A DNA stretch of 64,000 nucleotides, from positions 1,855 through 65,854 of IMG/VR virus record IMGVR_UViG_3300030329_001103; one strand, given 5' to 3'. This DNA is from a virus. Lineage: Duplodnaviria > Caudoviricetes. The notes below the pieces were generated by a model. The model was given only the letters and a program-made list of their open reading frames with translations. It was not told the DNA's origin and made no database searches. Positions 602-36,451 of the stretch are shown here, one piece after another. Each line of letters starts with the position of its first letter. Position 1 is the stretch's first letter. A program made the translations under genes and the position numbers.

Positions 602-1354
602 ATGTTATCAATGTCTATGATGCTGCCTGGCCTTGCTATGGGCGGGCCTCAGGGTATAGGTATAGCTGCTGGGGCTGGGGCTGGCGGTCTTTCTAGTTTC
701 GCTTCAGGGCCTTGGGGAATGATGCTTAACGCAGGTCTTCAAACATTTATGGGTGCTAGGCAAGCTCAAGCTCAAGCTATGGCTCAACGATTACAATTCG
801 AAGAACAGGAGTTTCAAAGAGAGTGGAATAATCAGGTAAGAAATCGCCAGATTGCGAAAGAAAATGCAAACAAATGGTTTCAAAATCAGAAGATAGCAGA
901 AGCCGCTAATAAAAATAGGGCTGAAAGAGATTTTTATATAAGGTATAACTTTGAAAATGAGACGGGAGAATTTTCTAGGCAGTCCCAAAGTATAAATGAT
1001 TCATTATTATCTTCTTTAAGCGGACGAAATATAAGTGGAGATAGTGGTACAGCTAAGGCTTTATTAAGAATGGCTATAGATCAGCGAAACAAATCGGCTG
1101 TAGCTAGAAGCGTCACATACGAAAATGCTTTGCGAGGATCTGAAAGACAACAAGAGGCTGCTCTTAATCAGCGAGACTTTAATTACAATGAACATATTCC
1201 ATTTATGCCAGGACACGACGGTACTCCATCAGGAGGTGAGGCTTTCTCTGGTGCATTGTTAAGTGGTATTGGTAGCGTTTGGGGTGCATACGCACAAGGA
1301 AGCATGAACCAAGATATGTTAGGTGCTATTAATAGAGGAGCAGGTGTACTATAA
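602..1354 (+). CDS. Internal virion protein (gp14-like ejection protein)
   Basis: Gly/Ala-rich hydrophobic N-terminus, Gln/Ala coiled-coil middle, Gly-rich C-terminus, no Cys; AAGGAG RBS; leads the block of very large proteins. Confidence 0.6.
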   Translation: MLSMSMMLPGLAMGGPQGIGIAAGAGAGGLSSFASGPWGMMLNAGLQTFMGARQAQAQAMAQRLQFEEQEFQREWNNQVRNRQIAKENANKWFQNQKIAEAANKNRAERDFYIRYNFENETGEFSRQSQSINDSLLSSLSGRNISGDSGTAKALLRMAIDQRNKSAVARSVTYENALRGSERQQEAALNQRDFNYNEHIPFMPGHDGTPSGGEAFSGALLSGIGSVWGAYAQGSMNQDMLGAINRGAGVL

Positions 1355-2367
1355 TGAAAGATATAAGATTATTAAAAGAGGTAGTATCAGGAGTTCCTGC
1401 TATTACTAAAAAAGATATCTCTGGTACAGATGCACGAGGTCAGAGGCATATTGATAAAAGCGAACAATGGTTGGCTAATAATAAAAATAAAGACAGTATG
1501 CTAACACTAAGAGGATGGCGAAGTAGTGTAGGCGATGGCTGGGAATATACCGATAACAACGTTGATTATAAAAACAAAACAGAACTAGATCTATTGGCTA
1601 AAGCTATTGGCTCGGAAGACAAAGCTAAAACCATGATGATTGAAGACTACAGAAATAAACTAAATGCATTAGGAAATTCTTTAGCTCAAGAACATAAGAT
1701 TCAAGACGATATAAAATATATGCCAGAGTGGATACGAGAAGATGTAATACCATTCTATCTTAAAACTTCGGCAGGTATGACTGATAGGAATCTAAGAAAT
1801 GCCCGATTAACAAAAAGAGAACAAGCATTTAAAACAGCTCGTTTAACAGAGGGCATGCTAGCAGAAGATGTATCAAGAAGAATACATCGAGAGGATGCTG
1901 AAAAACTTGACGCTATGGGATTACCGATACACATAGATACAAAAACGGGTCGATTTGCTACTGTTCAAGACGGTCAGTTAGTACCGGCATTTGCAATAGA
2001 TATGCCAGAAATGTCGTTAACTGAAGAGTTCTTAATGCACGATACAAGAGATGTTTGGGAGAATAGAATAGATGAACTTTTATTTAAATCTAGACAACGA
2101 GAACAAGAAACGCATAAAAAACTAAACGATGCTCTATGGCATAAACTAACAAGCTCCTCTATTCCTGAAGAATTTAAACCAGGTATTGTAGTAGATGCCG
2201 CTGAAAATAATGGGTGGGATATGCAGTATGTTTACGAAGGGGTTGATAGATTAATGGATGATGCATTCCAAAAAGGTATGTTTAAAAGACCTGGGGATGC
2301 TGCAAGATATTATAGAGAGCAATTTAACAATATTGCTAATCACGCTAAAAGGAGAATGGAATCATGA
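1354..2367 (+). CDS. Hypothetical protein, probable virion core/ejection protein
   Basis: 337-aa ORF coupled to neighbours, helical and Cys-free. Confidence 0.5.
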   Translation: MKDIRLLKEVVSGVPAITKKDISGTDARGQRHIDKSEQWLANNKNKDSMLTLRGWRSSVGDGWEYTDNNVDYKNKTELDLLAKAIGSEDKAKTMMIEDYRNKLNALGNSLAQEHKIQDDIKYMPEWIREDVIPFYLKTSAGMTDRNLRNARLTKREQAFKTARLTEGMLAEDVSRRIHREDAEKLDAMGLPIHIDTKTGRFATVQDGQLVPAFAIDMPEMSLTEEFLMHDTRDVWENRIDELLFKSRQREQETHKKLNDALWHKLTSSSIPEEFKPGIVVDAAENNGWDMQYVYEGVDRLMDDAFQKGMFKRPGDAARYYREQFNNIANHAKRRMES

Positions 2368-2729
2368 GTGATATACAAAGATATAATGTACTTCCCCCAT
2401 CACAGGAAATACCTGTTGATGCTCCTCCTCAAACCCTACAACCATCGTTACCTGACTTTGGTTCTTACTCAAACTTAGATGGACGGGCTCAATTATTTTA
2501 TGGAGCTATTCAAAAGAATTTAAGCGATGTTCAAGAGATGTTTCAAAAACAATGGGATTGGGAAATGAAACAAAGGCAAGCTGAAATAGAAAAAGAGAGA
2601 AAGAGAGAAGAGCAAGCAGCAGCGGCTAGACTGCAGCGAGAACTACTAGAGAACCAATGGCAAAGAGAGTTTGATGCTCTTCCTGATTATTCAAGAAATA
2701 TATATTCTGGAGGAGGATGGGCACTATGA
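2364..2729 (+). CDS. Hypothetical coiled-coil protein, probable virion core
   Basis: 121-aa ORF with ATGA overlap; Pro-rich N-terminus then charged coiled coil. Confidence 0.5.
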   Translation: MSDIQRYNVLPPSQEIPVDAPPQTLQPSLPDFGSYSNLDGRAQLFYGAIQKNLSDVQEMFQKQWDWEMKQRQAEIEKERKREEQAAAARLQRELLENQWQREFDALPDYSRNIYSGGGWAL

Positions 2730-5700
2730 CAACACCGAAACCTCGTATAATTGATCACTCTAAAACCGAAACCGGAGATATAATAAAATCGTTATTAAAA
2801 GCTGCATGGTATAAACGACCTATGGCTGCCTATCCTGGAGAAAGCCCATACGCTGGAGCACCTGGAACTACTAGGGGTCCTGTTGTTGACTATAAACATA
2901 CAGGCGAAGCAAAGCATGGAGGTCCTGTATATTTGCCGGGTGGTATGGAAGGCGATACCCCTGAAGAGGTAGAATCATGGTATAGGCAAAAGCCTGCTCC
3001 GCCTTCGGAACAAATAGTAGAAAATATTCCAGTACCTCCAGCTGTAAAACTTAATCAAGAAATGCTTAATCTAAAGCCTAGGGAGTATTGGCAGACAGAA
3101 GAAGGAATGAATGAATGGATGTCTTATGCTGTAACAGATGATATGTCTTGGCTAGAATCCGATGATGAAGCTATGAATCAATGGCGATGGACATTTGGTC
3201 ATTACTTAGATACTAAAGAACCTACTACTCAGCAGGACTATATGGAAGAATATAGTAGAGCTAAAGTTAGAGAAGCTTTTTCTAATAGGCTACATAACTT
3301 TGGTTTGTTTGCTAATGATTGGGATGATTTAATGCTTCACATAGATACCGATGGAGCTTCTTTTCAAGAGGGAGATGATACAGATTTTCTTGATGACGCT
3401 ATAGATCAAACATTAAACTTAGCAGTAAACGCAAGTCCTTGGTTAGAACACGCTCGTGAAGAAACGTATGGTAATGTCTTTAGTCTGGGTAGTACATTTA
3501 ATCGTGTTCTCCAAGATTGGCATACTAACTCTCCTGTCTTTACAGCTAATGATCCTCAGGGCTATTATGCTGATTGGCAAACACCGGCAAGAAATCCAAA
3601 CCAACATTCGGGAATGACACACGTAAGATCTTACGATCTTATGCCGCAAGAACAAAGACTGTTGATAAACGCAGCAATGAAGGACGTACCTATAATGATT
3701 CCTCATAGTGCTTTTTCATTAACAAAACAAGATGTAGCTTATTCAGATCCGAATTATCCTTATCCCGCAAATCAACCAGAGATAGATAAGATAACAGAAT
3801 ATCAAGAAGCACTTACTAACGAACTTCAATCATTCCACGTTGATCCAAAGATGTCTCAATTCTTAACAGACTTAGAAGAAAGGAAGACTCAGCTTTCTGG
3901 TAGAGAAACACAGCCAGGAATAGGAGGGTGGGATCCCTATGCTGCAGCCGAAACACAAGACTTCTCTGATTTTTATTCTACATATAGAACATATCTACCT
4001 CAAGAAATTACAGATAAGTACGATGCTTTTGTAGAACCAGATCCTCAACTATCTGAAAGTCAACTATATGATTTAAAAAGTATGATTAAAAATAGAGTAC
4101 TAAAACGACAGACACTACCAGCTAGAGTTGGAATGGAAAGTGAAACTTTATCGGTATCTTTAAGAGAAGTTCTTAAACAACTAAAAAAAGAAAATCTATT
4201 GCCACCTGGTTTGCATTTTCCTGAAGAAGGAATCACAGATAAAGAAATAGATACATTTGCTGAGTTAACAGTAGCAGCAAGCCAAGAAGGAAAACCCGAA
4301 ACCTTTGCTGAAGAGTTAAAGTTAATGGCACAAAACTTTGTAGAAAGTCCGGTTGGAACATTCCTTACTGAAGGATTTACTGATGAGCAAGTAAAAGTAA
4401 TGACAGACGTATCTAATCATGTGATGGATTTAGTAGGACAGCAAGAAATAGAAGCTGAGATGAATGAATTAGCAATGTTAGATAATAGAGAAGCTAACGA
4501 AAAAATTAATAAGAAGCTTGAAGAAAGAACCGCTAATGAAAGAAGGTACTGGGACAAAGTAGAAAGAGATACTGGTATGCAGTTAGGAATGTTTGGAGAA
4601 AATCATAAAGATATCTTTACATTTATTGCAGGACTAGGAGGACCTTTGTCTGCAGAATACGAAGGTAGAAGCGGACAGTTTATGACGATGCAAAGAATGC
4701 TTGTTGCTAACGCTACTTTAAAAGATAAAACCCCTGAACAAATAAAAGCTGTTGCCATGTACTATTTAAGTAATGGTATGCTCTCAGAGATTATGACTGA
4801 AGGTGTTGTCGACGGTGCAATAACAGTTAATCCTGATGGTACTTATGATCTAGCATTACAGAAGGGAGCTTTCTTAGATAATGTAGAACAACTTACAAGT
4901 CATTTAATAGACATACAAACAAAAGCTGCATCTTATAATCATAAAAAAGCTGCTGAATTATTCGATGCAAAGAAATCTCCTGAAGACTTCGCTAACTGGG
5001 GTATTGTAAAATTTTGGCAAGAAGAAGTAAGCGCTGATATTAAGAGTTATGGCGATGTGGTAGATTTAGTTAATGATGCTTTATATGATAACGATGGCGC
5101 ATTTACTAATGACCAAGCTATACGCATTTTAAAACTGTGGAATATAACACAAGAACAAAAAGCTAATTTAATTAAGCAAGGAAACGATAGCGATAAATGG
5201 AGTAGACGTGCTAGTCACGGTATTAATAACCAAGGAGCAGCTGTTGCTGTACATTCTAATCCTTCTCATCTATGGATTAATGGTGACTCATCAACAGATG
5301 ATGGATTAGGAACTCCAGGACATACGGCATTAATAGAAATGGGTAGAAATAAATTCCACAATTCTGTACGTCAGTATTATCAACAAGCATATGGAGATAT
5401 GTATCATCCCGAAATGATACCCGATCTAGAACAGTTAGGGTTTGTAAGTCGAAATAATATTAACTGGGATGCATTAGATTCACCGCAGGCAATACTAGCT
5501 GAGAACGGTATACCGATACAACATATAGCCGGAGCTCTTTCGCATTATCTATTAGATATACATTGGAGTAGCCCTACGCCAGAAATTGGACGGCAACAAA
5601 AGGCTTTAGTTAAACGTATTAACGAAGGAATGGCATTATTTAAACTTCCGGATTTATTTACAGAAGAAGTTACCCCAGAAAACATAGGAAGACTACGGTC

Positions 5701-7387
5701 TGCTACTATGGCTGTTAAAATGGGTATGTCTCTTTACAATGCTTCAAAGACAAACCCAGACATTCAAGCATCTTTACAAGGCATGTTAGGTTGGGATGCG
5801 GATAAATTTAGCGCATGGCAAAACAATATGAAATGGCTACAAAGTAATCCAGAATTTAGTTCATTCATTGGTGATGAAACATTTGAAATGCTATACTCAG
5901 AGGATCCAGCTAAATGGGCTGAAGCTATGAGTACTATAAAAGGAGGAACTACAGAAATTACTGATAAGATGTTATACTTCCTTTCTAAAATGATAGCCGG
6001 TTCTGAAATGCCAAACACCGAACAATTGGATAGTTTATTTAAACCACGTTCTAGTCTGAGAAATTTAGATTATAATATTACGTCTGATACTTTATGGGAA
6101 AAAACTTTCGGAGGCGGTGATACTTGGATAGGATCGGATATAATGGAAACTTTAGAAAACAATGGAATAGTAGTTACGATATATAATGCTGACGGTGAGG
6201 TAGATCGTGAGGCTAATGAAAATAATTTTAGACGGGCTGTAAAGATAGACGGAACTATATATGGCGACGATTTTAAGAATAACGGCATATGGGGGGATGA
6301 GTTTATTATGCGAGATCGTTGGCGAAAAGGACTAGGAACTTCGCGCCCTGATATTGTTTACGATGAAGACGAAGTTAGTTATTGGACACAGATGCAAGTA
6401 GCAACCTTAGGTGCCTATCTTCAACATGATGAACTTAATGCTGCTGCTCGAAATATAGTATCTTCTTTAGGTCCGGGAGAAACAATAGATATACCGACAC
6501 TTATAGATTTACTGGATACGGGAATGGATGTAACTAAAGGACTTACTTTCCATGGCATAGAACAGGGATCTAATTTTATGGGCGACGGAAGAGCCGTTAA
6601 AGAAAATTATATATTCTCTCATAGAAGCCAGCAAGGTTTATTTAAAGTAGCTAAAAATAGTCCAAAAGAAAATATGACTACATCTCAACGAGCTTACGAA
6701 ATTTGGCAAGATGCGCCACTACAAGTAAACAAAATTACTTCCCCGAGTTTTAAAGAACAGACAGTTAATAACTTTACTGAACACAATAGCTGGGGAACTG
6801 TATACACGCAAGCAGGAATAACCGAAGAGCAGTGGACTAAATCAATAAACGATATTGTAACAGAAGTAATTGGGGATTATACAAAAGCAATTCCTGTTTT
6901 AAATCAAATGGATATTGTAGGACGAAGGCCTCGTACAATGGCTATGTACGGTTCTATTTTAGATAGGATTTTTGAAACTTACCCTAATATAGATAATATA
7001 TTTGGACTAAATAGAAATACTTTGGTAGGATATGGATGGGAAGAATTAACGAGGGGTACGCCACTAGAAAGTGAAAGACCTCCCCATCTTGAGCTATTAG
7101 ATTTAAAGTGGTTATATACAAACCTATCGGTAGCTCCAGATGCTCATGGATTTCCTAAAACTTTATTTGGCATAGAGCATGATAGATATGCTCCTGGTTG
7201 TAATTTACAATATGAAGATGGCTCAGGTAATAAAAATACATGGAACTTTCCATGGGCTATTAGTGATTTATCGCTTGGCGCATCACGTATTGGTACTAGT
7301 GGAGATAAGATTATATATGACATGGATGGTACGATAATAGGTCAAAACAACGAAACTATAATTCAAGGAGCAAGTATAAATGAGTAG
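2717..7387 (+). CDS. Large internal virion protein (gp15-like position)
   Basis: 1,556-aa acidic ORF, only one Cys seen, directly before the giant ORF. Confidence 0.6.
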   Translation: MGTMTTPKPRIIDHSKTETGDIIKSLLKAAWYKRPMAAYPGESPYAGAPGTTRGPVVDYKHTGEAKHGGPVYLPGGMEGDTPEEVESWYRQKPAPPSEQIVENIPVPPAVKLNQEMLNLKPREYWQTEEGMNEWMSYAVTDDMSWLESDDEAMNQWRWTFGHYLDTKEPTTQQDYMEEYSRAKVREAFSNRLHNFGLFANDWDDLMLHIDTDGASFQEGDDTDFLDDAIDQTLNLAVNASPWLEHAREETYGNVFSLGSTFNRVLQDWHTNSPVFTANDPQGYYADWQTPARNPNQHSGMTHVRSYDLMPQEQRLLINAAMKDVPIMIPHSAFSLTKQDVAYSDPNYPYPANQPEIDKITEYQEALTNELQSFHVDPKMSQFLTDLEERKTQLSGRETQPGIGGWDPYAAAETQDFSDFYSTYRTYLPQEITDKYDAFVEPDPQLSESQLYDLKSMIKNRVLKRQTLPARVGMESETLSVSLREVLKQLKKENLLPPGLHFPEEGITDKEIDTFAELTVAASQEGKPETFAEELKLMAQNFVESPVGTFLTEGFTDEQVKVMTDVSNHVMDLVGQQEIEAEMNELAMLDNREANEKINKKLEERTANERRYWDKVERDTGMQLGMFGENHKDIFTFIAGLGGPLSAEYEGRSGQFMTMQRMLVANATLKDKTPEQIKAVAMYYLSNGMLSEIMTEGVVDGAITVNPDGTYDLALQKGAFLDNVEQLTSHLIDIQTKAASYNHKKAAELFDAKKSPEDFANWGIVKFWQEEVSADIKSYGDVVDLVNDALYDNDGAFTNDQAIRILKLWNITQEQKANLIKQGNDSDKWSRRASHGINNQGAAVAVHSNPSHLWINGDSSTDDGLGTPGHTALIEMGRNKFHNSVRQYYQQAYGDMYHPEMIPDLEQLGFVSRNNINWDALDSPQAILAENGIPIQHIAGALSHYLLDIHWSSPTPEIGRQQKALVKRINEGMALFKLPDLFTEEVTPENIGRLRSATMAVKMGMSLYNASKTNPDIQASLQGMLGWDADKFSAWQNNMKWLQSNPEFSSFIGDETFEMLYSEDPAKWAEAMSTIKGGTTEITDKMLYFLSKMIAGSEMPNTEQLDSLFKPRSSLRNLDYNITSDTLWEKTFGGGDTWIGSDIMETLENNGIVVTIYNADGEVDREANENNFRRAVKIDGTIYGDDFKNNGIWGDEFIMRDRWRKGLGTSRPDIVYDEDEVSYWTQMQVATLGAYLQHDELNAAARNIVSSLGPGETIDIPTLIDLLDTGMDVTKGLTFHGIEQGSNFMGDGRAVKENYIFSHRSQQGLFKVAKNSPKENMTTSQRAYEIWQDAPLQVNKITSPSFKEQTVNNFTEHNSWGTVYTQAGITEEQWTKSINDIVTEVIGDYTKAIPVLNQMDIVGRRPRTMAMYGSILDRIFETYPNIDNIFGLNRNTLVGYGWEELTRGTPLESERPPHLELLDLKWLYTNLSVAPDAHGFPKTLFGIEHDRYAPGCNLQYEDGSGNKNTWNFPWAISDLSLGASRIGTSGDKIIYDMDGTIIGQNNETIIQGASINE

Positions 7388-10300
7388 AGAGTGGGCAATC
7401 AAACCAATTCCTTTAAGCTTTGGACAAAAAGCATTTAATGAATATACAGGGGAACAAATACAAAAACGAGAAAACGTGTTGTCTAATTTCCCTTTGTATG
7501 CAAAGGATAGGAAAGATATACAATACGGTACTCCTTTTAAACCTGAAGATTCCCAACAATGGGCTTGGGGTATGATGAATGTTCATACTGCTGTATGGGA
7601 AAATATGGCTAACTCATATCCTTCAGGGTATATTGCAGATAATATCGCATCACATAAACAAAGAGCTAGTGTAATGCAACCTATTACCGGGTATCAAAAC
7701 CGAAAAGGTTATGAGATGTTTGATGACTCTATGATGGCATTCAAACCTGAAGCACAAAAACTAATTGATGGATATGCTGAAGGCACGGCATGGAACATGC
7801 TAAGGTTAGGGAACGATTATGGTAGAAACCCCATAGCATTTAATACAGGTACTGATCGTAGAGAAGCATTGGGTGGTACGCTTACAAACGAAACTCCAGA
7901 AGATTTATTTTTGGATGAACCACCACCAGGATGGAATATTAAAGAAGCTTTAGAACAACTAAGCGAAATTAATCCAGTTGCATGGGATACTTATAAATTA
8001 GTAATGGGTAGTGAAGAAAAAATACATGAGATAGCCGAAGGCAGTAAGACTCCAGGAGAAGTATTATATAAATTAAATAACTACGTACAAAGCGCCGCAA
8101 TAATGAACAGCTTAGACAAGAACTTTGAGCAAATGAGCTGGGGCGAAGAAATGTGGGCACTATATGGTAGGGGTTTAATTGTCAATGGTATTATTAATGA
8201 TCCCGATATGCCTGCATCGTTAACGGTAAGTTTAGGACTTGCTCCCTTTACTTGGGGTGGTAGTCTTTTACTTGGACTAGGTGCTAAGTTACTTAAAGCA
8301 TCAGTATCCTCTATTAAATGGGGCAAAAGATTAAGCAGATTAGCAAAAATTGCAGGGGGAACAGGAGCTGTTGTATCCCATCTAGCTAAAGTTAGGCATG
8401 TCTTGCCCGAAACAGTTGGTCCTACTGTTATGAAGAAGATGTTTAAGAACTATGATAAATGGAAGGGTGCAGATGAATTCTGGTCATGGAGACAGTTCTC
8501 TGTAAATAGATTAGGTGACGCAACAGAAGGTAGTATTACAGGCGGCTTTGCTGAATACAGTACACAAAGATATGATAAGCATTATGGATTAAGAGATGAT
8601 ATAGATATGAAAGGTGTACTAAAGGAATCTTTAGTTGAAGCGGCATTGTCTCCGATTATAAACCCAGCAGTAGGCGGCGTACATCGAGCAATTTTGGGCG
8701 GTCCTTTGTATGTAGCTAATAAAACTATGATAGAATATATACCAGAAACTTTTAGTAAGGGTCTTACAGAAAATTTTAAATCTTTAATGCAAAACTTTGA
8801 TCCTGATCAAACAGCGAAAATGTGGACTACAACCAAAAAGTTTGTGCAGCTAGGTGAAGATATTTCAGAATTAACAATGGATGATGTAGACCCTGCGGCA
8901 CTACAAGACTCTAGTCATATGCTTAACCTTGTCTTAGAAGGTGTTATGAATCATACAAACGTAGATCGCGTAGAGGTCATGAACACTTTATCAACTGTGG
9001 TTGGAAAAATTAAAGCGGGAGTAAATACAGGAGACGTAGCTAAAGATTCATTGTTAGGAGCTATGATAGAATCTAATAAAGAAAACTTTGGAGGAGAAGG
9101 AAAACTTTCTCTTGATCAAATGGCTTTCTTATTAGCTGATGAACTGTCAAGAAAGAAAGGTAAAAACGGTCAACCCAATCCCTATGGAATAAACAATACT
9201 AAATTCTTATTAGAGCTAGAAGAAAAACTTGCACACTTTAAGAATTTATCAGCCTTTGCAAAAGAAAATGGTTTGTCCATAGAAGAAGCTAAGAAAAAGA
9301 TAGAAGATGAGGGGCTTTTTATAGAAGTATATCCTGGTTTAAAGGAAGAAATCGTCGAACAAATTGGCGTAGACGAATACGAAAGACTTAAAGAAACAGA
9401 CGAAGGTAAGTTAAAGCTAAGCGGAATTGCTCTTGATATCTTTAAAGAAAAGGAAAAACAATTTCAGGAAACAGTTAAAGCTAAAAGAGAACGAGTTGCA
9501 GAAGCTCAGGTAGAAGCAGAAGATGCAGTTGCTGAAAATGAAAACATATATCTAGATGACGAAGATATTCCTGAAGATGTATCTCTCAAAGAGTTGGAAC
9601 AATTAAAGGAATGGGTAGAAAATCCTGGGGATGCTACTGTTACGCAGATAGATGTAAATATTAACACCTACCTTGAGCAAGGCTTGATTAACGAGGTGCA
9701 AGCAAACATGCTTAAAAAAATGACTCTTGAGGTATCACAAGGTAAAAGGGAGATACAGACGTTAACTGCCTTCGAAAACCAAATATACGAAGCATTACCT
9801 GCCGACGCGTATGTTGTAACTCTTATAGAGTGGCCTTCCAAGAATTGGCTTAATGCTGCATATAAATTATCTAAAGCAGGCGTTCCTTTCCACAATAGAT
9901 TAGCAGAATTACGAGGCGAAGCTCAAGCTACAACTAGCGAAAGAAAAACTCACGAGATTATTTCTGTAGACGAACACGATAATGGGGCTGATATTAAGTT
10001 TAGAAATGACGCAGGGGATATTTTAAACCTATCAATAGAAGTATTCGACCACGCAGTAATGATTGATGGTGTGCCGGAATATGGGAAGATGATAGAAGGT
10101 CATTTTTCAGCAGAAGATCAGACGAAGATAGACACTATGTCTGGTGATCCATTTACGGTTCTTAATACCGTAGGAGAGCAGTTGTTACTTTATGCTAAAA
10201 AGTTTGATGTGGATTTTGTTAGAATTATGTCTCAACAAGGTGAAACAGAAACTAGAAAACCAGGTGGGCCAAGTGCAAGGGCTAGAATATACCAAAGAAT

Positions 10301-13300
10301 GTTAAATAGAATTGTTGGCGAAGTTAAGCCAATTTCTTCAGACGAAGCTACTGGAACTTTTGTATATCGTTACTCTGATATCTTAGAAGCACAAAAGCGT
10401 ACAGCTGGAGAAGGGGAATCAAAAGACAAGGAAGAAGTCCCAGAAATTATTATACCTGCGTCACGACAAGAAGCTATTGCTAAAATAGAAGATTATATAA
10501 AAGACTTTCGAGAAAATTTCAGCCTTTCAGAAGATGGTTCTGAATATATAGACAACGCAGGCAATATTTTCGAGAGAGTTTCTTCTGTTATCGAAGAACA
10601 AATAGGAGAAATAGATCCAGAAGCTGCCGCATTAAAAATGGGTACTCTTATAGATGATGTTGCTAGAGATTATATTACTAATCCAGATGAAGCAACAAAA
10701 CCAGAAGGATGGAGCGACGAAGCATGGGAACAGTTTAAAGACGTATGGGATCCGATTATCCAGCAATGGAAAGACGAGGGACGTTGGTATACAGCAGAAG
10801 AAACAACCTTTGGTTCACTAGATGCAGGTGGCAGCGGAAGAAGTATTGCTGGCACTACTGACATTTTAACTATCACTGAAGATGGTAAAGTTGAAATCTT
10901 TGATATCAAAACAAGTAAATACGATACTTCTGAGTGGGATACAGAATTTGGTGATAGGCTATCTAAATCCGAACGATATAGTAAACAATTATCTCTTTAT
11001 GCTACATTAGTAGAAGAAGCTTTAGGACTTGAAGTAGCAGAAATTACTGCTATTCCGCTAGAACTAAATTATAACGAGACTGATCTGATTCCTATTAGCA
11101 TTACTAAGAATAATAATGTAGGACTACGGTTATTAAATAATATTAGAATTACTAATGGAGGTCTTGTTAGTAGAGGAACGGATGCAAGGAAATCTCCGCT
11201 ATCTACTCCAGCTCCTGAAGAAACTGAAGAAGATGCGCCAACTGATTTCCAAAAATGGCAAGACAGGTTAGATACTAGTATAACTAAAACTCAAAAAACT
11301 ATTCATGATTTAACAGAAGAAAATAAAAGTGAAGATATTCCTGAAGAAAAGAAAGAAAAGAATATTGATATAATTAAGAAACTAAAAGAATCTTTAAAGA
11401 GATTGGATAGTGCGAGACGTAAGTATAAAAAAGAAATTGCTGAGTGGGAAGCACTGGATGAAATTACTCCAAGGATAAAAGACTTGCATAAAAAGATGCT
11501 AACTTTTGAAAAAGAATTAAAAGATGCAGAACGAATTCTTTATAATAATCCTGAGTATATCTATATAGTAGAACTACACAAAGCGTTAGGATCTGGACAG
11601 ACACATATACAAGGATTAATACGCCATACTTGGGATAAAGAAGCAGCAGATAATTTAACTAGAAACCAGTGGATAAAACAACGACGAGAAGCCTTAATAG
11701 CAGAACAAGAAACAGAAGAAACGAAAAAAACAGATGATGAAATAGAGACACAGATTAAAGAAGAAGCTAAAGAATTTGAAAGAGAAGTTACTTTAGATGC
11801 TATAATTGAGGAAGGGTTTAGACCATCCCTCGCTTTAATGTTAGACAATATTCCAGAAGAAAGTTTAATTAATGTAGACGACGAAGGCAATCCGGTTTCT
11901 AATAAAAATATTATAACCCAACTACAATCACTTTTAGCAATAGAAAAAGATCCCGATCCTTCTGAATTCAGTAACATGACAAAGCTTAAAGAAGCTATAC
12001 TAAGTTTGCCTGATGTAGAAGTAACTAAAACTGAGTTAAATAAAATGAACCGCGGTGAGTTAAATGAACTCTATATTAAACTAAAAAAGAAAGCAGACAG
12101 AAGCGGTAAAGTAATTTCCCGTACCGTGTTATTACAAGCTCACCAAGAAGCGGATGCTAAGTTAACACAAATGGGTTTAGACATTCAAGGTACTGAGGCG
12201 TTTATAAATCTATTAGAAGCTAAAGATAAATTAGAACAAGCTAGTACAGAATATAATATTACAAAATCTGCTTTACAGGACGAAGCTACTAAAACTAGAG
12301 GCATGGCATTAAGATCTATAGGAGATTGGCAAGAACTTCTAGCGGTTCAAGCGGTTTTAAAAAGATATATAGATTCATCAATTGCTTTAGTTGAAAATGG
12401 AGAAGTACAAACAGCTAGAGATATAAGAGATATCGCACCTGCTGGATCAAGGTTAAGAAAAGAAATCAATAAAATTATTCTTGAGATGGAAAACGATGAA
12501 GGTCCTACTAATAACGATTTAGATGCCGCTAGAGAAAAAGCAAAAACTCTGGAGGATGTATCATGGGAAGATGCAATAAACGGTATACTGCATAAATTAC
12601 CATGGTCGTTTATAACAGATAGAGCTGTGTCTATACTGGATTCTGATTTAGAGACCGGCGCAGAAACAAAACGAAAAAATTGGATTTTAAATGGACTCGA
12701 ACAAGAAAGAACTAGAATCAGTAATCTATCTCCTGAGCAAATGTGGAGAACACAAGTTCCAAGAAACTTACAATACTTAGCTAAAACTAAACTACATCAA
12801 ATGTCAGAACAAGATTGGCTTACTGTAGAAGCTGCGGATATTACCGGTCGTGATATTGAGTTATATGATAAAAAAATATTCGGCGCTGAAGCAGCGGCTA
12901 AAGAATTAGAAGCTTTAGAAATTATTAGTAATCATTTAAACGATAGACGTAGTGGATTAAATCCAGATCAACCAATTAGATCAGCAGAAATTCGTAAGTG
13001 GGCTGAGAATACAGCATATGGAGAATGGGCAGTTTCACCTTCCGTCTTATTTAAACAAGCAATAAGCAAAGAACATGAGATAGATTTAAATAAAATAACT
13101 GACGACGAGCTAGCGAATTTGGAAGTTGAAATAACTTTTGATGCAGATCTATTAGTTGATGTTATTCGAAATCTTCTAGAAGAATCTTTAGTATATAATT
13201 CTTACTTTGGTCGTAAAATTCCATCAAGGTTAAGAAAAGCAACCGTCGGCGAAACTCTTAAATCTTTAAGCTTAAAGCGAAACAAGGATGGATACTTCCC

Positions 13301-16300
13301 AGCGAAAGAAGCTAGAAGACATATTAAAGATATGTATGATGCTGTATTGCCTATACTAAGAGAAAGGGCAGATGAGTTTGGGTTTGTATATGAAGTCAAT
13401 GAAAACACGCTATGGCCTAGTGAATCTTCAGGTCCGCTGGAAGGATTAAGTCCAGCGGATAGAGGTAAGGCAGAAGCTAAATATGAAAACGTAGCTAGAA
13501 ATGCTATGATTAAACGTATACTTAAATACTTATCTAAAACAGGAACAAGAACTTTAGTTGATAATATAATGGAAGAAGTCGGTTACATAAAAGAAAAAGA
13601 TGTAACTAATCAACAGTTGGCTATGATACTAGCTGATAAAATACTTTTAGCTATTCCTAGTATAACTGAAGATAACTGGACAATCAGTAGCTTTGGTGAT
13701 GGTACTGTAGATTGGCAACCCGCTAAGGATGCAGGAGAAGGATTAGTAGATTACTTTAGTATGAAATCTCTTGTTACTAAACGCCATAAAGTAAGTATCA
13801 TTCAATATGATGATGGAAGATTTGGTATTGAAGTAAACGGTATACTAGATACAGATGAACACGAAAGTACAGCGATCTTAGCTTTGACTAAAGGTCAGGG
13901 CAATATGCTTGCGCTTATTCCACTATACGAAAGATTAAGCATAGCTGAAAATAGTAGAACTAGATTTAGAATAGAAAAGATTACCAATATCATTAATGCT
14001 CCAGAAGAAGTACAAGCGCAGTATAGAAAAGAGTGGGAAGAAAAAATTAGAAACACCAAAGTTGAGGCAGCTCTTCCTGAGGGAGCAGGGGTAATGATAA
14101 GAATACCAGATAAAAGAAATCCTATTTATTCTGGCGCTATACCTACCGAAGATAAACTTGCAGCCCACTTCTTCCCCAACCTATTATTACAAACTACAGA
14201 AGAAGAGTTCTTAACAAGAGAAGAAATATTAGATGCCGGTATGTATTATATGCTTGACCTGCCTAACTTAAGTCGTGCATACATCCAAGACTCTGTTACC
14301 TATTCAGCAAAAGCTAAAAAGAATAGACGGCTAAGTGCTGAGGTTCCGACTCATGTTCAAATAACTGAAGAAGTAATTACTAAAGATGGTATAGAACGTA
14401 AGAAAGTAACAGGCATATCAATGGGATCTGACTTTATTTTACCTCCGCATGAGATCCTTGTAAACGCTATCTGGGAAAATATTGGAGGATCTTATCAAAA
14501 TGTATTTGATCTAGCTATGGAAAGTTACGAAATAACTCGAAACCATTTAATAGAAAAACACGGCGAAGAAGCATTTACAAAAGGTAAGATGTGGAATAGA
14601 GATGTCATGCATGATGATAGAAAGAGTAGTGTATGGTGGGAATTCATGATGATGGCAGGTGCTTTAAATCCTAAGGTACAGAAAACCATTGATACTATTA
14701 GACAACAGCTAGCCAATAAAACATATGGTGGAGAAAACTTTAAACAAAACTTAGACGATCTCTATATTGAAAGTGGTATATATGTTGTCGGTAGTATATT
14801 CGATGCGCCTCAACATAAAGACAGATCTTTAAGTATTCCATCCTTTATGTCTATCTTTAACAATCTACAAAACATTAAAGATAGAACTGATTGGGATAGA
14901 ATATATGAAGCTGCAGATACAGACCAACAAAAACAAATGGATGTTATTAGAGACTTCTTTAAAATACCTGCACTACGAACTATGTATACAGGCGGCATGA
15001 AAGCTTTCTTAAGTACCTTTGAAGGCGAAAAAGAAGAAGGAACTAAGTGGCTGCAGTCAGCTTCGGAAGTATTCGGTATTAATATTAAAGATCTTAGAGC
15101 TGAATTAGAAAACCTAAGTAAAATTCTTTATGAGAATAGTTACATTGAGACGGGTATTTTAATGGAGAATGCGCTAGGTATGGATGAAGAAATCCGTTCA
15201 GAGGTGCTAAAGTTCATGGAAACAAAACAAGATGAATCCGAATTGATTAAAAAATCAAAAGACATCTTGCAAGCTGTAAGTAGAGATCCTGAAAATATAA
15301 ATAATATTATTGGATTAAACGGTATCCTTGAAGTTATGGAAGCTAGTGTAGCACATTGGGTAGAACTTGCTTATCCAGAAGGAGCTACACCTGCCAATAT
15401 GAAGAAAGCAAAGAAAAGATTAGTTAATGATCCTTTAGAAAAGAGTAAGAGATATTTAACAAAACTTAAAGCAAAGGGTATTGCAATACCTTCTGGAATG
15501 AAAGATGAGCATTGGCAATTCCTTCATGAGCTATGGCTACCAAAAGAATTTAAATCCTGGCAACATATGGATTTATTTAAAATGTGGAATATCATGTTAT
15601 CTGGTGCTTGGCAAATCAACGCAAAGAACATAAGTCAAGTAGCTAAGACCTATGGTATTATGGATTATAAATTAGAACATCTAATGGGATTACCAGAACA
15701 AAATATATATCTAAGGCAACGTCCTCAAGATACTGCTCAACGTGCCTTTGATGAGTATGGTATCTTACCAAACAATAAAGGTATTAGGTTTGATAGAGCA
15801 GAAGTAGATGCTGACAAGTTAGCTATCTATGTAGAAGAACGCAAGCAAAGCATGAATCAAGCTGAGTTTAAAAAAGATCCTGAGTATTACTTTAATCAAT
15901 TTATATTAGAATATATGGAACAAGATAAAGATCATCGTGCCGCCTTAGGTGCTTTCGATCTAGTCGATAGTCCTATGCATAAGATATATCGAGATGCTAA
16001 AAAAGAAGGAGCTACAGATAAACAAGCATGGGATAAAGTTAGAGCCGAATTGGATAAGATGCTTTGGTATGAAGAAATGTTAACATGGTCAGAAAAGTAT
16101 CCATTACCTTTTGAAGATTATACTATTGAAGATTCAAATGCAGAATTCTATAGTCACTTTATGAATTCTTGGAATCAAAGCTGGGAAGAAAGGGCAGGTA
16201 CTCTACCTGCAGAATTGCAGCAGGAAAAACAAGCTAGAAAAGAAATGAATGATAAGCCATGGAGAAAAGAGTTTATTGAGGGTAGAGTTAAAATGGGACG

Positions 16301-19300
16301 TTCTCTTGTAGTTGATCCTAAGAGACCTCACATTAATCCTTATGCTGTTGTTGAATATGACGATGCAGTCGCTAGCAAATATGATCATCCACTAACTGTA
16401 GATAGTGAAAACAGTAAAGGTCCTATATCATTTATTCCTAAGATGAATAACTATTCATTTGCTAATAGAGGTATGATGGGATTGGAACTAGCATTGAGAA
16501 CGAGAAAATTAAACGAAAGAATGGACCCAATTGAACAAGTTTTAGCCAATACAAATGAAACATTGTCTACTAAAGAAGGAGCAGAAGAAGTTATAAAGCC
16601 TTACTTAGAAGGACGAAAACCATCTATCGCTGCTCCAGAATCCGCACTAGGTCGTATAAGTCCTTGGAATCTTAATACTATTCCAGAACCACTGCCACCA
16701 ATTCCGCAGTATATAGTAGAAGAAGCTTTGGAGTTAGACGATACACGTCTGGGACAAGAGGTTGGTAGGTTCTATCAAAGAATAACTGAGTATGCTAGAA
16801 GTATTGGAATGGAAGATGAACTAGATAATCCCGAAGCATGGCCTTTCTTAAACTATATGTTACGAACTCAGAACGTAATAAAACGAAATCTTCAGTTTAC
16901 TAAACGAGGCGCAAGTAAAACACTAGGAGAAACTCTAGCTATACGTTCTAGATTTAAAGAAGACTTCTTAGAAATCTCTCAACTATCAAGAGACTTACGA
17001 GAAGAGACAAGAGATGTTATGGATTTAGAAACACCAGGGAAACCTTTAGGGATTCATAAGCCGCCTGTCGATATGACACTCGGTGAATTCTTAGGCAGTA
17101 AACCTACGAGTATGACAGATCCTACTCCATTGATTGATCACACTCTTCTATGGGATCAACTTGACTTTACAGTACCCGAAGAAAGTGTAGTTGATCAAGC
17201 TACTTTAATTGATGAGCAAGGTAATGAACATCCAATTGAATCTAAGACATCACAATTCTTAACTAATATTAACTTTAATAAAGACTTTATTAAGTACGCT
17301 GTTTCATCCCTATTAACAGAAGCTTATGGTGTAGAAGAAATCAGAAAATTCAAAGATGGTAAATATGCAAGCTTAGTAGAACCAGGTTCAGAAAATCTAG
17401 ACAACTACTTTGATATCATAGATCAATTTAGTTTAGAAGATCTTCGGGAATTGTTATATAATATTAAAAACGGTGCTAAAGAAAGTCCTGTATACTTACA
17501 TATGGACTTACGTTTGATTCGTGAACTAGGTGAAGCATCCCCAGAAAAACGAAAAGAAATGGCAGATCATTTATTTGTAGGTATTGAAAACGCAGAGTTG
17601 GCAACTACGAATGAAAAGACTGGTATTAGGCATAAGTTTAAGCATAGAGAAGGTGGTATCTATTCTGGTATGCATGCATGGTTAGCTGTACCTTCTAGAG
17701 TTAAAGGCGATACAGCTAGACTAAGAATAACACCAGAAGGTTTAATACGTATGGTTATGACATTAACTAACTCTGATTTACTTTGGAGAGCACAGATGTC
17801 TGCCATTAGTGGAAGATCTCTTGGCGTTGATGTAGACTTTGATGGCGCACCTATTAGTACTGTTGCCACTTCTAGATTGGTAAGAGAAAACGAAGGAGCT
17901 AATAATGTTCGTCGTATTCGAAAACGATCTATCCAAGAAACTACTGCTTTAGATATTATCATGGGTAAAACCGAAACAGGAAAACCACAACTTAGAACTG
18001 TAACGTCTGGTCGTAGTACTATCCGTTCAGCGGCAGTACGTCACGTAAATTACGGAGACTATCATCATCCTCGACATAAAGGAAGACTACAAAACTTTGT
18101 GATTGATGAAGTGTATTACGGTATTGCTAATGGGTTAGTGACGCAGATTAATACATTAGGTAATGGCGATTTAAATACCGCAGTAGATAAAGTACAAGAG
18201 TATATACATAAAGCTAGAATGGGAGAAGCTCATGAAAAGAATGTTATTGATATACTTGCATTAACAGTACTCGCTAATTCAGACGGAAATAATTTCCATC
18301 AAATCGATGTAGATACTCTTACCGCTTTCTTATATAATGAAGAGATTGGTAATCCAGATTCTACGAAAGTTATTACAGCAGCTCGTAATGAAGCATATGA
18401 GTTATATAGAAACTTACAGTCTTTAATCTCTAAAGACGAACATGTCTGGTCTGGTAATGATTACGATGCACTTGCGGCTGACTTTGTTTATAAACTCGCT
18501 GCAAAAGAATATCAATACCCAGATAATCCTAAACTTAATATGACAGCCGAAGAAATGGTAGATCAAATGTATGAAGATTTCTTTAAGAGAGTAGACCAAG
18601 AAGCTCCTTTAAGAATAGACGCTACTGAAGTAATTGTAGATGTAATGCAAAATCTTGGTATGTCTCAAGAAGATGCTCTTAAAATGCCTGAGGTAGTAAA
18701 TTACCAAGAATGGTTAGCTGATACTAATAAGACATATCAACTAGATATTGAAACTGACCATACTAATGAAAATATTATTTCTATTGGTATTAAAGAAGGA
18801 TCTAAAGAAACTAGATATGTAGGAAACAGTAGTGAATTCTTAAGTCAGAAACAAGCTCTAGCTATACTTAAAGCTATAGAAAAGAATCAGCAAGACGGTT
18901 ATAAGGTTTCTGCCTATAACGGTGTTAGCTTTGACTGGAGAATACTTGGAAAGGTAGCTGGAGATCATAACTTAGCGGCACGAATTGCACTAAGAAGTAT
19001 AGATCCGTTTGAAAACTTAAGGTCATTTAAGAGTAGGAATAAAGGAGTGGGATACCATGCATGGCATGGATTAGAAGCGGTAGCCGAAAGACTAGCTAAG
19101 AAACCATGGGAAAAGAGTATGGATGGTCTTGAAGCTTATCTCTATTGGCTAAGAGGGCAAGGTATTGAAATAAATAAAGAGTCTGTTATGAAATATAACA
19201 TAGACTTAGATAAAATAAAGAACTTAAAAGAACATAAAGGTAAAGGTAATAGTGCTGTCTTTAAATACTACAATGACATTGAACCTTCTGACGCTACGAC

Positions 19301-22300
19301 AAAACTAAAGAAGTATACTAAGGAAGACGTAGACATACTAAATGAAGTCTATCACGCATTAAACAAGAAGACTAATCAACAAGATAGAACTTCTCACATT
19401 GGAGAATACAGTGTTACTATTGATCAGATGTATCCTACTTGGTTCTTAGATGCTAGAAGAGATCTTGAGTATAAAGGACTAGGAGAAGAAAAACTTTTCT
19501 TTGCAGAATGGGATTCAACTATCAAAGAACAAATACTTGAACTCTCAGGCAATATGAGAAAATCTAATTTCAGTAATGTTATTGCTAATGGAGATATCCG
19601 TAAGAATAAAGATCTAGCTTTAGCGGCTTTACATAAAGCTATTGGACGCGAAGAAGAAGCAGAAATAAATTCTGTTAGTGAATGGATTGACTCTAAAGTA
19701 AAGCACGAGTTTAAAGATATTGCTACTGCTTCTGCTGCTAATGATCATTTATATAAATACGAAGAAATCCATAGAGGACAGTTAAGAGATATCTTTGATC
19801 ACATAAACGAATTAGTTACAACACATGAGGCATTAACAGAACATGATGCTATGTTAATGCGGGATCTTGTATTACGTATTTATCATGTCAATCCGTTTAA
19901 CATCCTAGATCTTCACATAGTTAATCAGATTAACGAAGAGAAAGGTGTACCTGTATCTGGCGCTATGAAAACAGAAGAGGGTAAGTTTGAAATCAGGATT
20001 GGTAAAGGCTTTGTAGATATCCAAGAAATTGGTGGCGGACGAGCACCCCTTATCTTTGCACACGAACTAGGTCACGTAGGTAGATTAAAATGGATAGAGT
20101 CTAACCGAAAAGAATGGAGACAGTATCGTGATATAATGCATAGTGACGGTGGTAAAGAATTTATCAAAGCCATGGTACAAGCATTCAATGAAGGTCGATG
20201 GGATGCAAAAGCTGAAAAAGAATACGAAAGATATACAACTGATGTTGAAGAATTTATGGCTGCAATGTATGGATACTATATGCTAGAAGGGCAGCTACCT
20301 GCTTATACGGAATACTTAGATTCTACTAAAGGTAAGAAAGCTTTACCGCCAGGATACCATGACGCAGAAGATAAAAGTTGGAGTATCCTAAGAAGAATCT
20401 TTGACTTTGTTTTAAATAGATTACAACGAGTTGCTAATGTCTTTAGAGTATTTAGACACCAACATCCAGAAGCAGCCGAAGTTTCAGAAAAGCTTATTCA
20501 AAGAATGTTAGGATGGTCAGCAGACAATACTGCTCTTATACAATATGCTAGCGATGTTCCAACTGGTGAACTGATGTTCATGGAACCTCGATTCCCTCAG
20601 GTTGAAGAAAAAGCTCCTGTATATGATGATGCATTTATCATTGAAGCATGGCAACGAATGAAAACACTAGAAGCAAAAGCAGCTACAACTACAGGATTAA
20701 CCAAAGAAGAAAATCATGAATATGGAGAAATTGTTAGACTAATAAACTCCGATGAAATGTCAACACCCGATGAACTAAATACTACTAGGTGGGAACGTGT
20801 GACTGTAATGAGCGATATAATGGACAGAGATATGTTAGATCCTGAATCTAAATCTATGTTCGGAACCGATGCTGCTATGAGTCTTCCTGATTTGTTTTAT
20901 GTGCTACATACTGTAAACGAAGAAACGCTAACCCCAGCTACAGCACTTGAGCGAAGGGTTCTTGCTTCTCATATATTAAGAACCACAAAGAAAGAATTTG
21001 GCTATCAAGTAAATAATTCTGCTGGTGAAGCTATGAGAGCTGCAGGTAAATTCTTAAGCAAGATGGGACAAAAACTTGGAATTGCTGACAGCGAAGAGGC
21101 TATCAGTCAGCTAATGACTGACGTACTCGTAGGTAATACTGGAGCTAACTATACCTTTAATTCTCTATTCACAATTCCTATTATGCTAACATCCTTATTA
21201 GAAAGTAAGGTTGCAGGAATGAGTGGCAACTATACTAACATATTTGGACAAAGAGATATTTCAGGAAGTCTGCGACAATTAGAAACTTGGAGTAGTGCAA
21301 TCGGTGCTATTACGAACGAAATAATAATAGAAGTCGGTGGAACTATAGATAAGATTGCAGGTAAAATAGTAAGTGAAGGCAATAAGAATATCATGGCTGA
21401 TATTTCATTTAAAATTCTACAGGCTGTTCAAGGCGAAATGGATACGAAAGATTATCTTAAGACGTGGGAATTAGATATTCCTGAATTAGCTGATACTGAA
21501 GTTCCTGCTAAAGCTTTAGAAATAGCTAGACTTTTACATAACCAATTGACTTTCTTCCAAGCAGAAGGTACAGCATTGGGTATGTTTAGTAAATTTATGC
21601 ATGCTATTCCTATGCAGTTACAAAATAGTATCTGGACTGAAGGCGAAGTAGGGAAAGGTTATACTACTCTTAGAACTGAAATGCGTAACGAAGTTCAGAA
21701 ACGTATTGAAGACCCAATAAACTCATCACTTGTTGAGCCTACTTTAGTTTATGCTGCTAACTTCTTACCAGACTTAGATCAAGAAGGTATGGCTGATTGG
21801 TTTGAAAGTATAGCTATAAATAATCCTAGTCAATTACTTATGGGAGATCTAGTGGCTACTAGAGCACTACAATATCTTAAACAAATAGGTACAAAGGATT
21901 GGGTAACTCGAGATCAAGTTACTGCACTTACAGCTAGAATAAGAGCTGGTGAACATAAGGTTGTAGCTGCTGTGCGAGTTGCTACAAAAAGTATTATGGA
22001 TGGCTTTGGAGAAAAAAGAATTGACTGGGAATTCTTAAAGAGACAGCAAGATAGAAGCGCAGATTATGCCGGTGCTTATAAAGGTTTAAAGGATAGATAC
22101 AGTGCAATACTAGATTCAGAAAACTATTCTACTGAAACCGCTTTGTCAGTAAAAAGAAAGCTAGCTCAACTTAGTTCACATTCTCTTGGGCTAGGTTTAG
22201 AAAAGTATTACTTTAAATCTAGAAAGGGTAGTAGTGTTCTTCCTATGAATAGTGATACTCCTATTGATTTAATTACTAGTACTATGTTAAGTCGAGCAGC

Positions 22301-24464: not shown

Positions 24465-24522
24465 GAATTTACACGGGCATAGGGTAGTACGAACTGGATT
24501 CGTTTCCCCCCCGTACCCCCTT

Positions 24523-24542
24523 ATGATGGTATTCTCCATCAA
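24523..24542 (+). repeat. Partial copy of early-region repeat (hairpin TGATGG-TATTCT-CCATCA)
   Basis: ATGATGGTATTCTCCATCAA, 19/20 identical to the start of the copies at 24808 and 25183. Confidence 0.8.
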
Positions 24543-24588
24543 GCTATGAGTTCCAGCTTAAAGGACTCAATTCAAAGGCATAAGCGCT

Positions 24589-24762
24589 ATGAACTACGAC
24601 ACCAGTTTTGTCATTGCGTGTATGTCCATCTGTCTATCAATGTATTCATTATGGACATGTTGGAATACTTCGGCTGATAGCAGCAAATTAAACGAAGTAT
24701 ATAGGAAAGATTTACAAAGTCTCATGAAGAAACTAAATGAGATGAATAAAGATCTTTCCTAA
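24589..24762 (+). CDS. Small membrane-anchored early protein (57 aa, not in ORF track)
   Basis: MNYDTSFVIACMSICLSMYSLW...; lies between repeat copy 1 and a terminator. Confidence 0.55.
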   Translation: MNYDTSFVIACMSICLSMYSLWTCWNTSADSSKLNEVYRKDLQSLMKKLNEMNKDLS

Positions 24763-24769
24763 CACACTC

Positions 24770-24803: not shown

Positions 24804-24807
24804 AAGA

Positions 24808-24853: not shown

Positions 24854-24866
24854 AGAGAGCAAACCA

Positions 24867-25088: not shown

Positions 25089-25102
25089 CCTCGATGTACA
25101 AC

Positions 25103-29041: not shown

Positions 29042-29070
29042 TGCCCTATAGTTGGGTCTAAAAGATAAGA
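29042..29070 (+). promoter_or_regulatory. Candidate phage-RNAP promoter, copy 1
   Basis: TGCCCTATAGTTGGGTCTAAAAGATAAGA matches 47192-47220 at 26/29. Confidence 0.55.
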
Positions 29071-36157: not shown

Positions 36158-36451
36158 ATGCGACAAGATCATGATCAAAAATTCGGAGGCACTTTTAATG
36201 CTCACAAGAACTGGAAGAAGTTACGAGAGAAGCATAAGAAAAGTGATGAGCATAAAGCTAGGACTGGTAAGAAGAATTGGAAGCCTGAAGTGTATGAACC
36301 TAGAGATGGTGGTGCAGGTAAAGGTGATGCTGAAAGAGAAAGAACTGTACCCGATGAAATCTATGGATACAATTATGACTTAGCCTTTGGTAAAATTACT
36401 AAGGAAGAACATAAAAAATTAGTTGAAAAATTCTGGGAGGATAACTCTTGA
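36158..36451 (+). CDS. Hypothetical basic protein
   Basis: AGGAG RBS; GAGKGD motif; overlaps the RNAP start. Confidence 0.65.
   Translation: MRQDHDQKFGGTFNAHKNWKKLREKHKKSDEHKARTGKKNWKPEVYEPRDGGAGKGDAERERTVPDEIYGYNYDLAFGKITKEEHKKLVEKFWEDNS

Follow-up and report, generated by a model that had tools for sequence, protein, structure and literature searches.

The 64,000-nucleotide stretch analysed here (the window) is taken from the 65,854-bp viral record IMGVR_UViG_3300030329_001103 (positions 1,855 to 65,854; CheckV completeness 98%), which represents a T7-like podophage of approximately 66 kb with its own gp1-type single-subunit RNA polymerase (RNAP). Downstream of terL, the end of which forms the start of the window, a giant open reading frame (ORF) encodes a protein of 5,694 amino acids. 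A first-pass annotation made from the sequence alone had proposed that this protein contains a virion RNA polymerase (vRNAP) domain of the phage N4 type, on the basis of five strings (KKNRRL, HDDRKSSVWWEFMMMAG, DDLY, RDFFKIPALRTMYTGG and AFD). The ORF is real and all five strings lie where they had been placed in it (Table 1). The comparisons below support the presence, in a conserved central module, of D-x3-S-G, D-x-Y and R-x3-K-x-P-x5-Y-G-G patterns that would correspond to polymerase motifs in N4 and T7 order and with N4-like spacing. This suggests that the module may be a very divergent single-subunit polymerase module of the N4/T7 type, a reading that we consider plausible but unproven and a little short of probable.

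The central module is common to approximately 26 relatives, all unnamed, whose full-length members comprise 3.5–5.6 thousand amino acids. An exhaustive phmmer search with residues 1850–3000 against 1.84 billion representatives returned 20 proteins including the query (giants of 3,526–5,635 amino acids together with fragments), and pattern scans of IMG/VR and JGI metagenomes contributed seven further distinct loci; iterations with hidden Markov models were also used. Searching 50,697 phage records by tblastn with two parts of the giant protein gave no match, and a homologue search by length class found one relative of near length and none among shorter or longer proteins. The blocks common to the relatives are the N-terminal 700 amino acids, the central module and three C-terminal blocks, and residues 900–1890 are without counterpart in them. 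Family members contain between 0 and 6 cysteines each, and a gp1-type RNAP of 814–821 amino acids is encoded in all five of the related viral contigs examined.

Conservation was counted in a 27-row family alignment in which row coverage varies by column. In the motif-A-like block, D2413 is aspartate in every covering row (18/18 and 19/19) and S2417 is kept in 17/18, within the consensus D-[RQ]-x-x-S-G. The DDLY string, which takes the form D-[FLY]-Y across the family, retains D2460 in 19/19 and Y2462 in 18/19 rows, and matches NDLY of N4 (D610) and DIY of T7 (D569). The motif-B-like block is conserved at R2524 and K2528 (both 22/22), P2530 (21/22), R2533 (23/23), Y2536 (22/23), G2538 (20/23) and G2539 (21/23), as is the nearby F2547 (23/23). 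The family consensus of this block is R-E-F-F-K-V-P-V-M-R-R-x-Y-G-G-G, in which K-x-P is common to the N4 family consensus and absent in T7. Three of the five strings are thus strongly conserved in homologues, whereas KKNRRL is not conserved in the family. The same applies to D2791 in AFD, the tentative motif C of the first-pass annotation, which was rejected because it is aspartate in 5/12 rows and falls below the list of positions conserved at 85%. Further conserved residues lie upstream (D2124 and R2197, 18/18; P2266 and D2304, 20/20), at G2349 (20/20), P2355 (21/21) and N2737 (17/17), and late in the module (R2788, R2806 and G2857, 17/17; D2860, 15/17 and 16/18).

The motifs of N4 and the absence of cysteine from its vRNAP, as given in the first-pass annotation, agree with the N4 record, which reads TRVGR (R424), EADGVTNGPINAMM (D559), NDLY (D610), RGIAKNPLTITIYGSG (R666/K670/Y678) and IFDG (D951) and contains 0 cysteines in the full protein. 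In the giant protein, 47 residues separate D2413 from D2460 and a further 64 lead to R2524; the corresponding distances in N4 are 51 (D559 to D610) and 56 (D610 to R666), and the T7 equivalents of the three residues are D537, D569 and R627.

Table 1 Features of the window, with positions counted from its first nucleotide
Feature	Position	Strand	Remarks
Three ORFs directly upstream of the giant ORF	602..7387	+	250, 337 and 1,556 amino acids; 0, 0 and 1 Cys
Giant ORF	7380..24464	+	5,694 amino acids; 1 Cys (residue 5421); at the IVP-D-like end of the late module (IVP, internal virion protein)
Conserved central module	13035..16247	+	residues 1886–2956
Candidate motif C no. 1	14163..14309	+	invariant P2266 and I-[HQ]-D2304-[SEQ]; upstream of motif A
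KKNRRL	14316..14333	+	starts at residue 2313
Motif-A-like block HDDRKSSVWWEFMMMAG	14610..14660	+	starts at residue 2411; D2412/D2413
DDLY	14754..14765	+	starts at residue 2459
Motif-B-like block RDFFKIPALRTMYTGG	14949..14996	+	R2524 to G2539
AFD (D2791)	15744..15752	+	starts at residue 2789; D2791 is 255 residues after Y2536
Candidate motif C no. 2	15936..15977	+	G2857-x-F-D2860-L-V-D2863 (G-M-F-D-L-V-D)
RNase_H_2 (PF13482) exonuclease-like domain	18741..19202	+	residues ~3788–3941; E = 1.1e-7
HELGH (HExxH)	20061..20075	+	residues 4228–4232
Three hairpin repeats ATGATGGTATYCTCCATCAA	24523..25202 (24523, 24808, 25183)	+	just 3' of the giant gene stop (24464); candidate pre-early promoters
Candidate gp1-RNAP promoter TGCCCTATAGTTGGGTC	29042..29058; copies at 47192 and 37477 (2 mismatches)	+	3 matches, 0.23 expected
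gp1-type single-subunit RNAP	36448..38889	+	813 amino acids

Ungapped profile-window scans with literature-defined motifs were made over the approximately 1,070 positions of the central module. The N4 and T7 D-x-Y windows both place D2460 at rank 1/1076, and both motif B windows place the R2524 block at rank 1/1067 (z = 4.9 for N4 and 4.3 for T7). When three whole proteins of 4,650–5,635 amino acids were scanned, motif B ranked first in 3/3 and D-x-Y in 2/3. In the positive control, N4 on T7, motifs A, D-x-Y and B rank first and motif C second; TxxGR reaches rank 31/871, and is thus hard to find in the control too. Scored as a collinear chain (A, DLY, B and C), the N4 windows reach 42.5, compared with 23.4 ± 2.9 for column shuffles, and none of the 500 shuffles attains the observed score. 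Permuting columns within windows likewise gives 0/500 (z = 6.2–6.9), and the score of the T7 chain of D-x-Y and B is reached by 1/500 permutations. A three-motif regular expression (0/20,000 protein shuffles) was not used because it misses N4, T7 and 8/13 family members.

Profile alignment with hhalign pairs many of the same residues. A sub-profile of residues 2385–2570 aligns with N4 535–705 at E = 8.6e-4 (N4-versus-T7 control, 6.9e-7), setting D2413 opposite D559, S2417 opposite N563, M2423/M2424 opposite M569/M570, D2460 opposite D610 and R2524 opposite R666. The best local alignment of the whole profile to the N4 family also superimposes motif B on motif B.

Motif C is ambiguous, and the second catalytic aspartate would be either D2304 or D2860. 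The block around P2266 and D2304 resembles APNFVHS...IHDS of T7 and IPFMT...IFDG of N4, with P2266 at position −38 from D2304. D2304 is the top match of the T7 motif C window, hhalign of the block gives E = 0.0038 to N4 and 0.09 to T7, and the score of a permuted chain that includes D2304 is reached by 2/500 permutations. As D2304 lies 109 residues upstream of motif A, its use as motif C would imply the permuted order C-A-B. D2860 stands in the canonical order in a sequence like I-F-D-G of N4, and ranks 1/1074 with the N4 motif C window and 425 with that of T7; it is replaced by E in homologue P0004 and by S in P0009, the closest relative. A sub-profile hhalign on the motif C side is not significant, and the N4-versus-T7 control there itself reaches only E = 0.024.

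A number of results weigh against a polymerase, among them the permuted order or replaced aspartate that the two motif C candidates entail. They favour the alternative that the central module is a conserved, predominantly helical segment of a giant ejection protein, with the role of an ejectosome scaffold or of an unrelated enzyme, and that its motif resemblance is due to chance or convergence. The phage's own RNAP makes a second RNAP unnecessary. A Pfam scan that covered the entire giant protein, divided into three segments, matched only RNase_H_2 and no polymerase, and a PHROG scan gave nothing at E ≤ 0.001, the weak match being phrog_31080 (function unknown; E = 0.0069) in the N-terminal third. 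Searches of PDB sequences with phmmer and the family profile found nothing relevant and no polymerase, none of six family members matches the Pfam or PHROG models of N4 vRNAP at E ≤ 10, PF21894 has no match in the phage's own genome, and PF00940 matches in the window only the phage's own gp1 gene and not the giant ORF. In the positive control the N4 mini-vRNAP matches PF21894, PF21769, PF21867, PF21624 and phrog_2206, and also the T7-type phrog_414 at 5e-6. The libraries thus recognise N4, even through phrog_414, and do not recognise the module, which, if related, would therefore lie further from N4 than N4 does from T7. Since it belongs to neither the curated N4 nor the curated T7 family, we do not file the module there, although it may still work like their members.

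Individual motifs and alignments add to this side. The motif A windows place D2413 at rank 51/1074 (N4) and 27/1074 (T7), compared with rank 1 in the control. No invariant G-R of a DX2GR/TX2GR motif lies 100–140 residues before D2413, the top matches of the DX2GR/TX2GR window scans fall elsewhere in the module, and hhalign of the sub-profile on the DxxGR side gives E = 0.43 and 0.61 (control, 6e-4). Whole-profile hhalign is not significant against either the N4 family (10 phages; E = 0.087 and 0.077, probability <1%) or a T7-type profile (10 RNAPs; E = 0.14–0.58, with motif B the second match at E = 0.58), and aligning the family profile by hhalign with individual N4 and gp1 sequences found nothing. 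Among 225 N4 window pairs the predicted pair ranks second and the best is non-collinear (family 2075 versus N4 783; E = 7.9e-4); among 180 T7 window pairs the A-B pair does not reach the top 10, which is headed by another non-collinear pair, family 2633 versus T7 205 (E = 0.0035). The weak non-collinear similarity between family 2075–2320 and N4 721–954 serves as a gauge of noise. Because non-collinear matches are equally strong, the noise ceiling of hhalign here is approximately 1e-3, and no single order, linear or circular, accommodates all three weak matches.

Separately from the motifs, a block at 15573–15692 (residues 2732–2771; F-x-A-L-N-I-x-N-S-S-A-Y-K-L-N, with N2737 invariant) resembles the conserved block of T7-type RNAPs at T7 316–334. 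The hhalign similarity of these residues to T7 316–360 (E = 0.14 and 0.0035) is out of motif order and was treated as noise.

Structure prediction and fold search, which the first-pass annotation had put forward as a check, returned neither a palm nor an RNAP fold. The AlphaFold2 model of residues 1886–2956 (21 rows) consists almost entirely of helix and places no strand at either the motif A or the motif C candidates; it is of low confidence (mean predicted local distance difference test (pLDDT) score 58.8, predicted template modelling score 0.38). A Foldseek search of the PDB with this model gave 35 matches, none at E ≤ 0.001 and none to a single-subunit RNAP of phage type; one match alone is related to polymerases, a chain from a plastid-encoded RNAP complex that ranks 19th (E = 6.9). 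The pLDDT is approximately 84–87 in the R2524-K2528 helix and below 55 in motif A and both motif C candidate regions, and because the motif regions are modelled at such low pLDDT, the model is weak evidence against a palm. An all-helical module would also be in keeping with IVP-C and IVP-D homologues, which are described as having extensive alpha-helical structure and as liable to match other proteins spuriously (PMC4819975).

Taken together, these points make a non-polymerase module a serious possibility, if one that we are inclined to doubt. What it does not readily explain is that the invariant D, S, D, Y, R, K, P, R, Y, G and G between residues 2400 and 2540 coincide, except for R2533, which has no RNAP counterpart, with universal positions of N4 or T7 RNAPs, in the same order and with spacing within 4–15 residues of both. 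Nor would two independent polymerase profiles be expected to rank the same positions first, or the chain tests to give 0/500, and a helix with only a structural role would have no need to keep R-x3-K...Y-G-G invariant. For the N4-type domain originally proposed, motif order, spacing, first-ranked scans and the sub-profile alignment hold up, whereas library matches, DX2GR and significant whole-profile alignments do not. 

A role other than transcription for a fold like that of the family A polymerases, either as a DNA polymerase or repair enzyme working with the RNase_H_2 domain or as a catalytically dead DNA-binding or translocating module that aids genome entry, strikes us as improbable. In its favour, family A DNA polymerases share R-x3-K-x7-Y (RDQAKTFFYALIY in the enzyme of this phage), the same protein carries an exonuclease-like domain, no DX2GR was found, the canonical-order motif C candidate is not invariant and a gp1 RNAP is already present. 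Against it, the module fits N4 better than it fits the phage's own DNA polymerase (hhalign E = 0.024, outside the motifs), D-x3-S-G, D-x-Y and K-x-P are characteristic of RNAPs or of N4, and the exonuclease-like domain lies outside the blocks shared by the family and is not listed for homologue P0003.

If the module is a polymerase, its closest parallel would be the N4 gp50 vRNAP (mini-vRNAP residues 998–2103; Schitoviridae), likewise a giant, almost cysteine-free protein of the late module with its motifs mid-protein. The two have in common D-x3-[S/N]-G, [N/D]-D-L-Y and R-x3-K-x-P-x5-Y-G, in the same order and with spacing within 4–8 residues, and the three hairpin repeats with which the early region opens here recall the N4 promoters P1–P3. 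They differ in that the present protein is of 5,694 rather than 3,500 amino acids, has no match to PF21894, PF21769, PF21867, PF21624 or phrog_2206, lacks TX2GR, has an ambiguous motif C and is not detectably similar to either terminal domain of the N4 protein; the hairpin loop is of 6 nucleotides here and 3 in N4. The genomic setting is also different, being T7-like with one 813-amino-acid gp1-type RNAP, whereas N4 uses a heterodimeric RNAPII. N4 is described as using this RNAPII and then the host RNAP, with three hairpin early promoters located in the leftmost 10% of its genome (PMC4496689), and its vRNAP as embedded in an IVP-D homologue (PMC4819975).

The T7 gp1 RNAP family (PF00940) offers a second comparison. 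The D-x3-S-G pattern is that of DGSCSG in T7 (compare DGVTNG in N4), D-x-Y resembles DIY, R-x3-K-x7-Y-G resembles motif B, and I-[HQ]-D-[SEQ] at D2304 resembles IHDS. The differences are that PF00940 misses the giant ORF and that the order would be C-A-B if D2304 is motif C.

The giant ORF is the last of four ORFs of 250, 337, 1,556 and 5,694 amino acids located 3' of terL, which together contain 2 cysteines in 7,837 residues (0, 0, 1 and 1), in contrast to a cysteine content of 1.5–3.8% in the RNAP and replication enzymes of the phage. Cysteine depletion, which we read as a mark of ejected proteins, and gene position both fit an internal virion protein, and it is from these two features that we infer that the giant protein is packaged and ejected. 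The three smaller ORFs, for which Pfam and PHROG scans gave no match, are probably companion internal virion proteins. T7 gp16 (IVP-D) is likewise large, helical and cysteine-poor and is encoded in the late module with smaller cysteine-free ORFs (T7 gp14, gp15 and gp16 contain 1, 0 and 0 cysteines). The present protein is four times larger, and its gene set follows terL and is not placed between the genes for the tail tube and the fibre. An hhalign comparison of five family blocks with T7 gp14, gp15 and gp16 and with the N4 N- and C-terminal domains gave at best E = 0.013 and probability ≤3.4%, with single-sequence templates of low sensitivity.

Enzyme domains are known in IVPs (PMC4819975). 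Outside the central module, the giant protein contains the RNase_H_2 exonuclease-like domain and, in its C-terminal part, HELGH, an A-H-E-L-x-H sequence kept in 9/9 covering family rows. This suggests a putative metallopeptidase-type site, and the C-terminal HExxH region has no Pfam or PDB match. A large cysteine-free protein of phage StenR_269 has been proposed as a vRNAP on the basis of its size, lack of cysteine, helical character and a low-confidence AlphaFold model (PMC10747016). That argument is of the same type as ours and concerns another phage lineage, and the passages of that report seen by us contain no motif evidence. A literature search with supplements excluded found no description of an N4-type polymerase module in a gp1-bearing T7-like phage, which is not proof of absence.

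The three hairpin repeats at the 3' side of the giant gene (3 matches, 0.03 expected) each head a small plus-strand ORF. Each has a 6-bp stem and a 6-nucleotide loop and would form a DNA hairpin of −4.4 kcal/mol (z = −2.5 to −2.9), and no sigma-70-like site was found when sought on the three repeats. They are candidate pre-early promoters. Comparable hairpin repeats 3' of the giant gene were not found in four relatives, which tells against such a use. A second element, TGCCCTAWAGTTGGGTC, has three plus-strand copies, few for a T7-like genome, one of which (with 2 mismatches) lies inside the RNAP gene. As the first copy is at 29042, approximately 4.5 kb of pre-early genes are left without a candidate gp1 promoter.

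These elements can be combined with a polymerase in the central module into a conditional scheme. As T7 gp16 and N4 gp50 do, the giant protein would accompany the DNA into the cell on ejection, and its polymerase module, built around the motif A aspartate D2413 (D-x3-S-G), the D2460/Y2462 helix and the motif B residues R2524-x3-K2528-x-P2530-x5-Y2536-G-G, would enter with the leading DNA end and transcribe the pre-early region that starts after 24464. Transcription might begin at the three hairpin repeats and continue until the phage gp1-type RNAP is made, in which case the transcription programme would be independent of the host RNAP. The full version, in which a marine T7-like lineage packages an ejection protein of approximately 5,000 residues with a polymerase core beyond current models, perhaps of C-A-B order with D2304 and D2413 as the metal pair, uses hairpin promoters, hands over to gp1 and never needs the host RNAP, is speculative and in our view unlikely as a whole.

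Should the module have polymerase activity, delivery of a single-subunit RNAP by the virion would cease to be confined to the Schitoviridae, and a T7-like phage would combine the N4 strategy of an injected RNAP with the T7 strategy of an RNAP made early. The module would represent a third, very deep branch of single-subunit RNAPs, possibly with an unusual motif order, which would bear on the evolution of these enzymes and of podovirus ejection proteins and might provide a new orthogonal RNAP/promoter pair. The question is open to a direct test, since expression of the domain is feasible and there are candidate promoters to use with it. If instead the resemblance is spurious, the locus would still encode an unannotated, conserved and nearly cysteine-free family of giant ejection proteins with an invariant HExxH, as well as the exonuclease-like domain in the giant protein of this phage.

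In keeping with the T7-type genome with a normal gp1 that the first-pass annotation had described, the gp1-type RNAP has matches to phrog_414 (E = 3.9e-156) and to PF00940 (E = 7.8e-78). The window also encodes a primase/helicase, a family A DNA polymerase and a ribonucleotide reductase, a portal, scaffold, major capsid protein and tail tube A and B proteins, and a T7-type tail fibre with a beta-helix. Identity between the gp1 homologue and the RNAPs of isolated phages, mostly Autographiviridae, does not exceed 27.5%, which places the phage in a distant, uncultured lineage, and the sequencing runs that contain it are labelled as marine metagenomes.

The 12-kb early region between the giant gene and the RNAP gene (24464–36448) is dense in small ORFs, and its G+C content at 24–32 kb is 0.43–0.44, compared with 0.35–0.40 mostly elsewhere. 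A 210-amino-acid minus-strand ORF with 7 cysteines (24879–25511), which may not be a genuine gene, overlaps the repeat region. The repeat region includes a 46-nucleotide exact repeat at 24808 and 25183, as well as a 68-nucleotide repeat, 82% identical, with two more hairpins at 25112 and 25543; a terminator-like hairpin is present twice, at 24764 and 28866. In sequencing run X3, positions 24533 and 24819 are adjacent on one contig, which skips the 285 bases between them, so a related strain has one repeat unit fewer, as recombination between hairpin repeats would give. The k-mer depth changes near 24830, from 30.4 on the giant-gene contig to approximately 56 rightward in run X1 and from 14.4 to approximately 25–30 in run X2, and the higher depth extends for at least 2 kb. 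This step may reflect two co-occurring strains that share the early region, or a long terminal redundancy.

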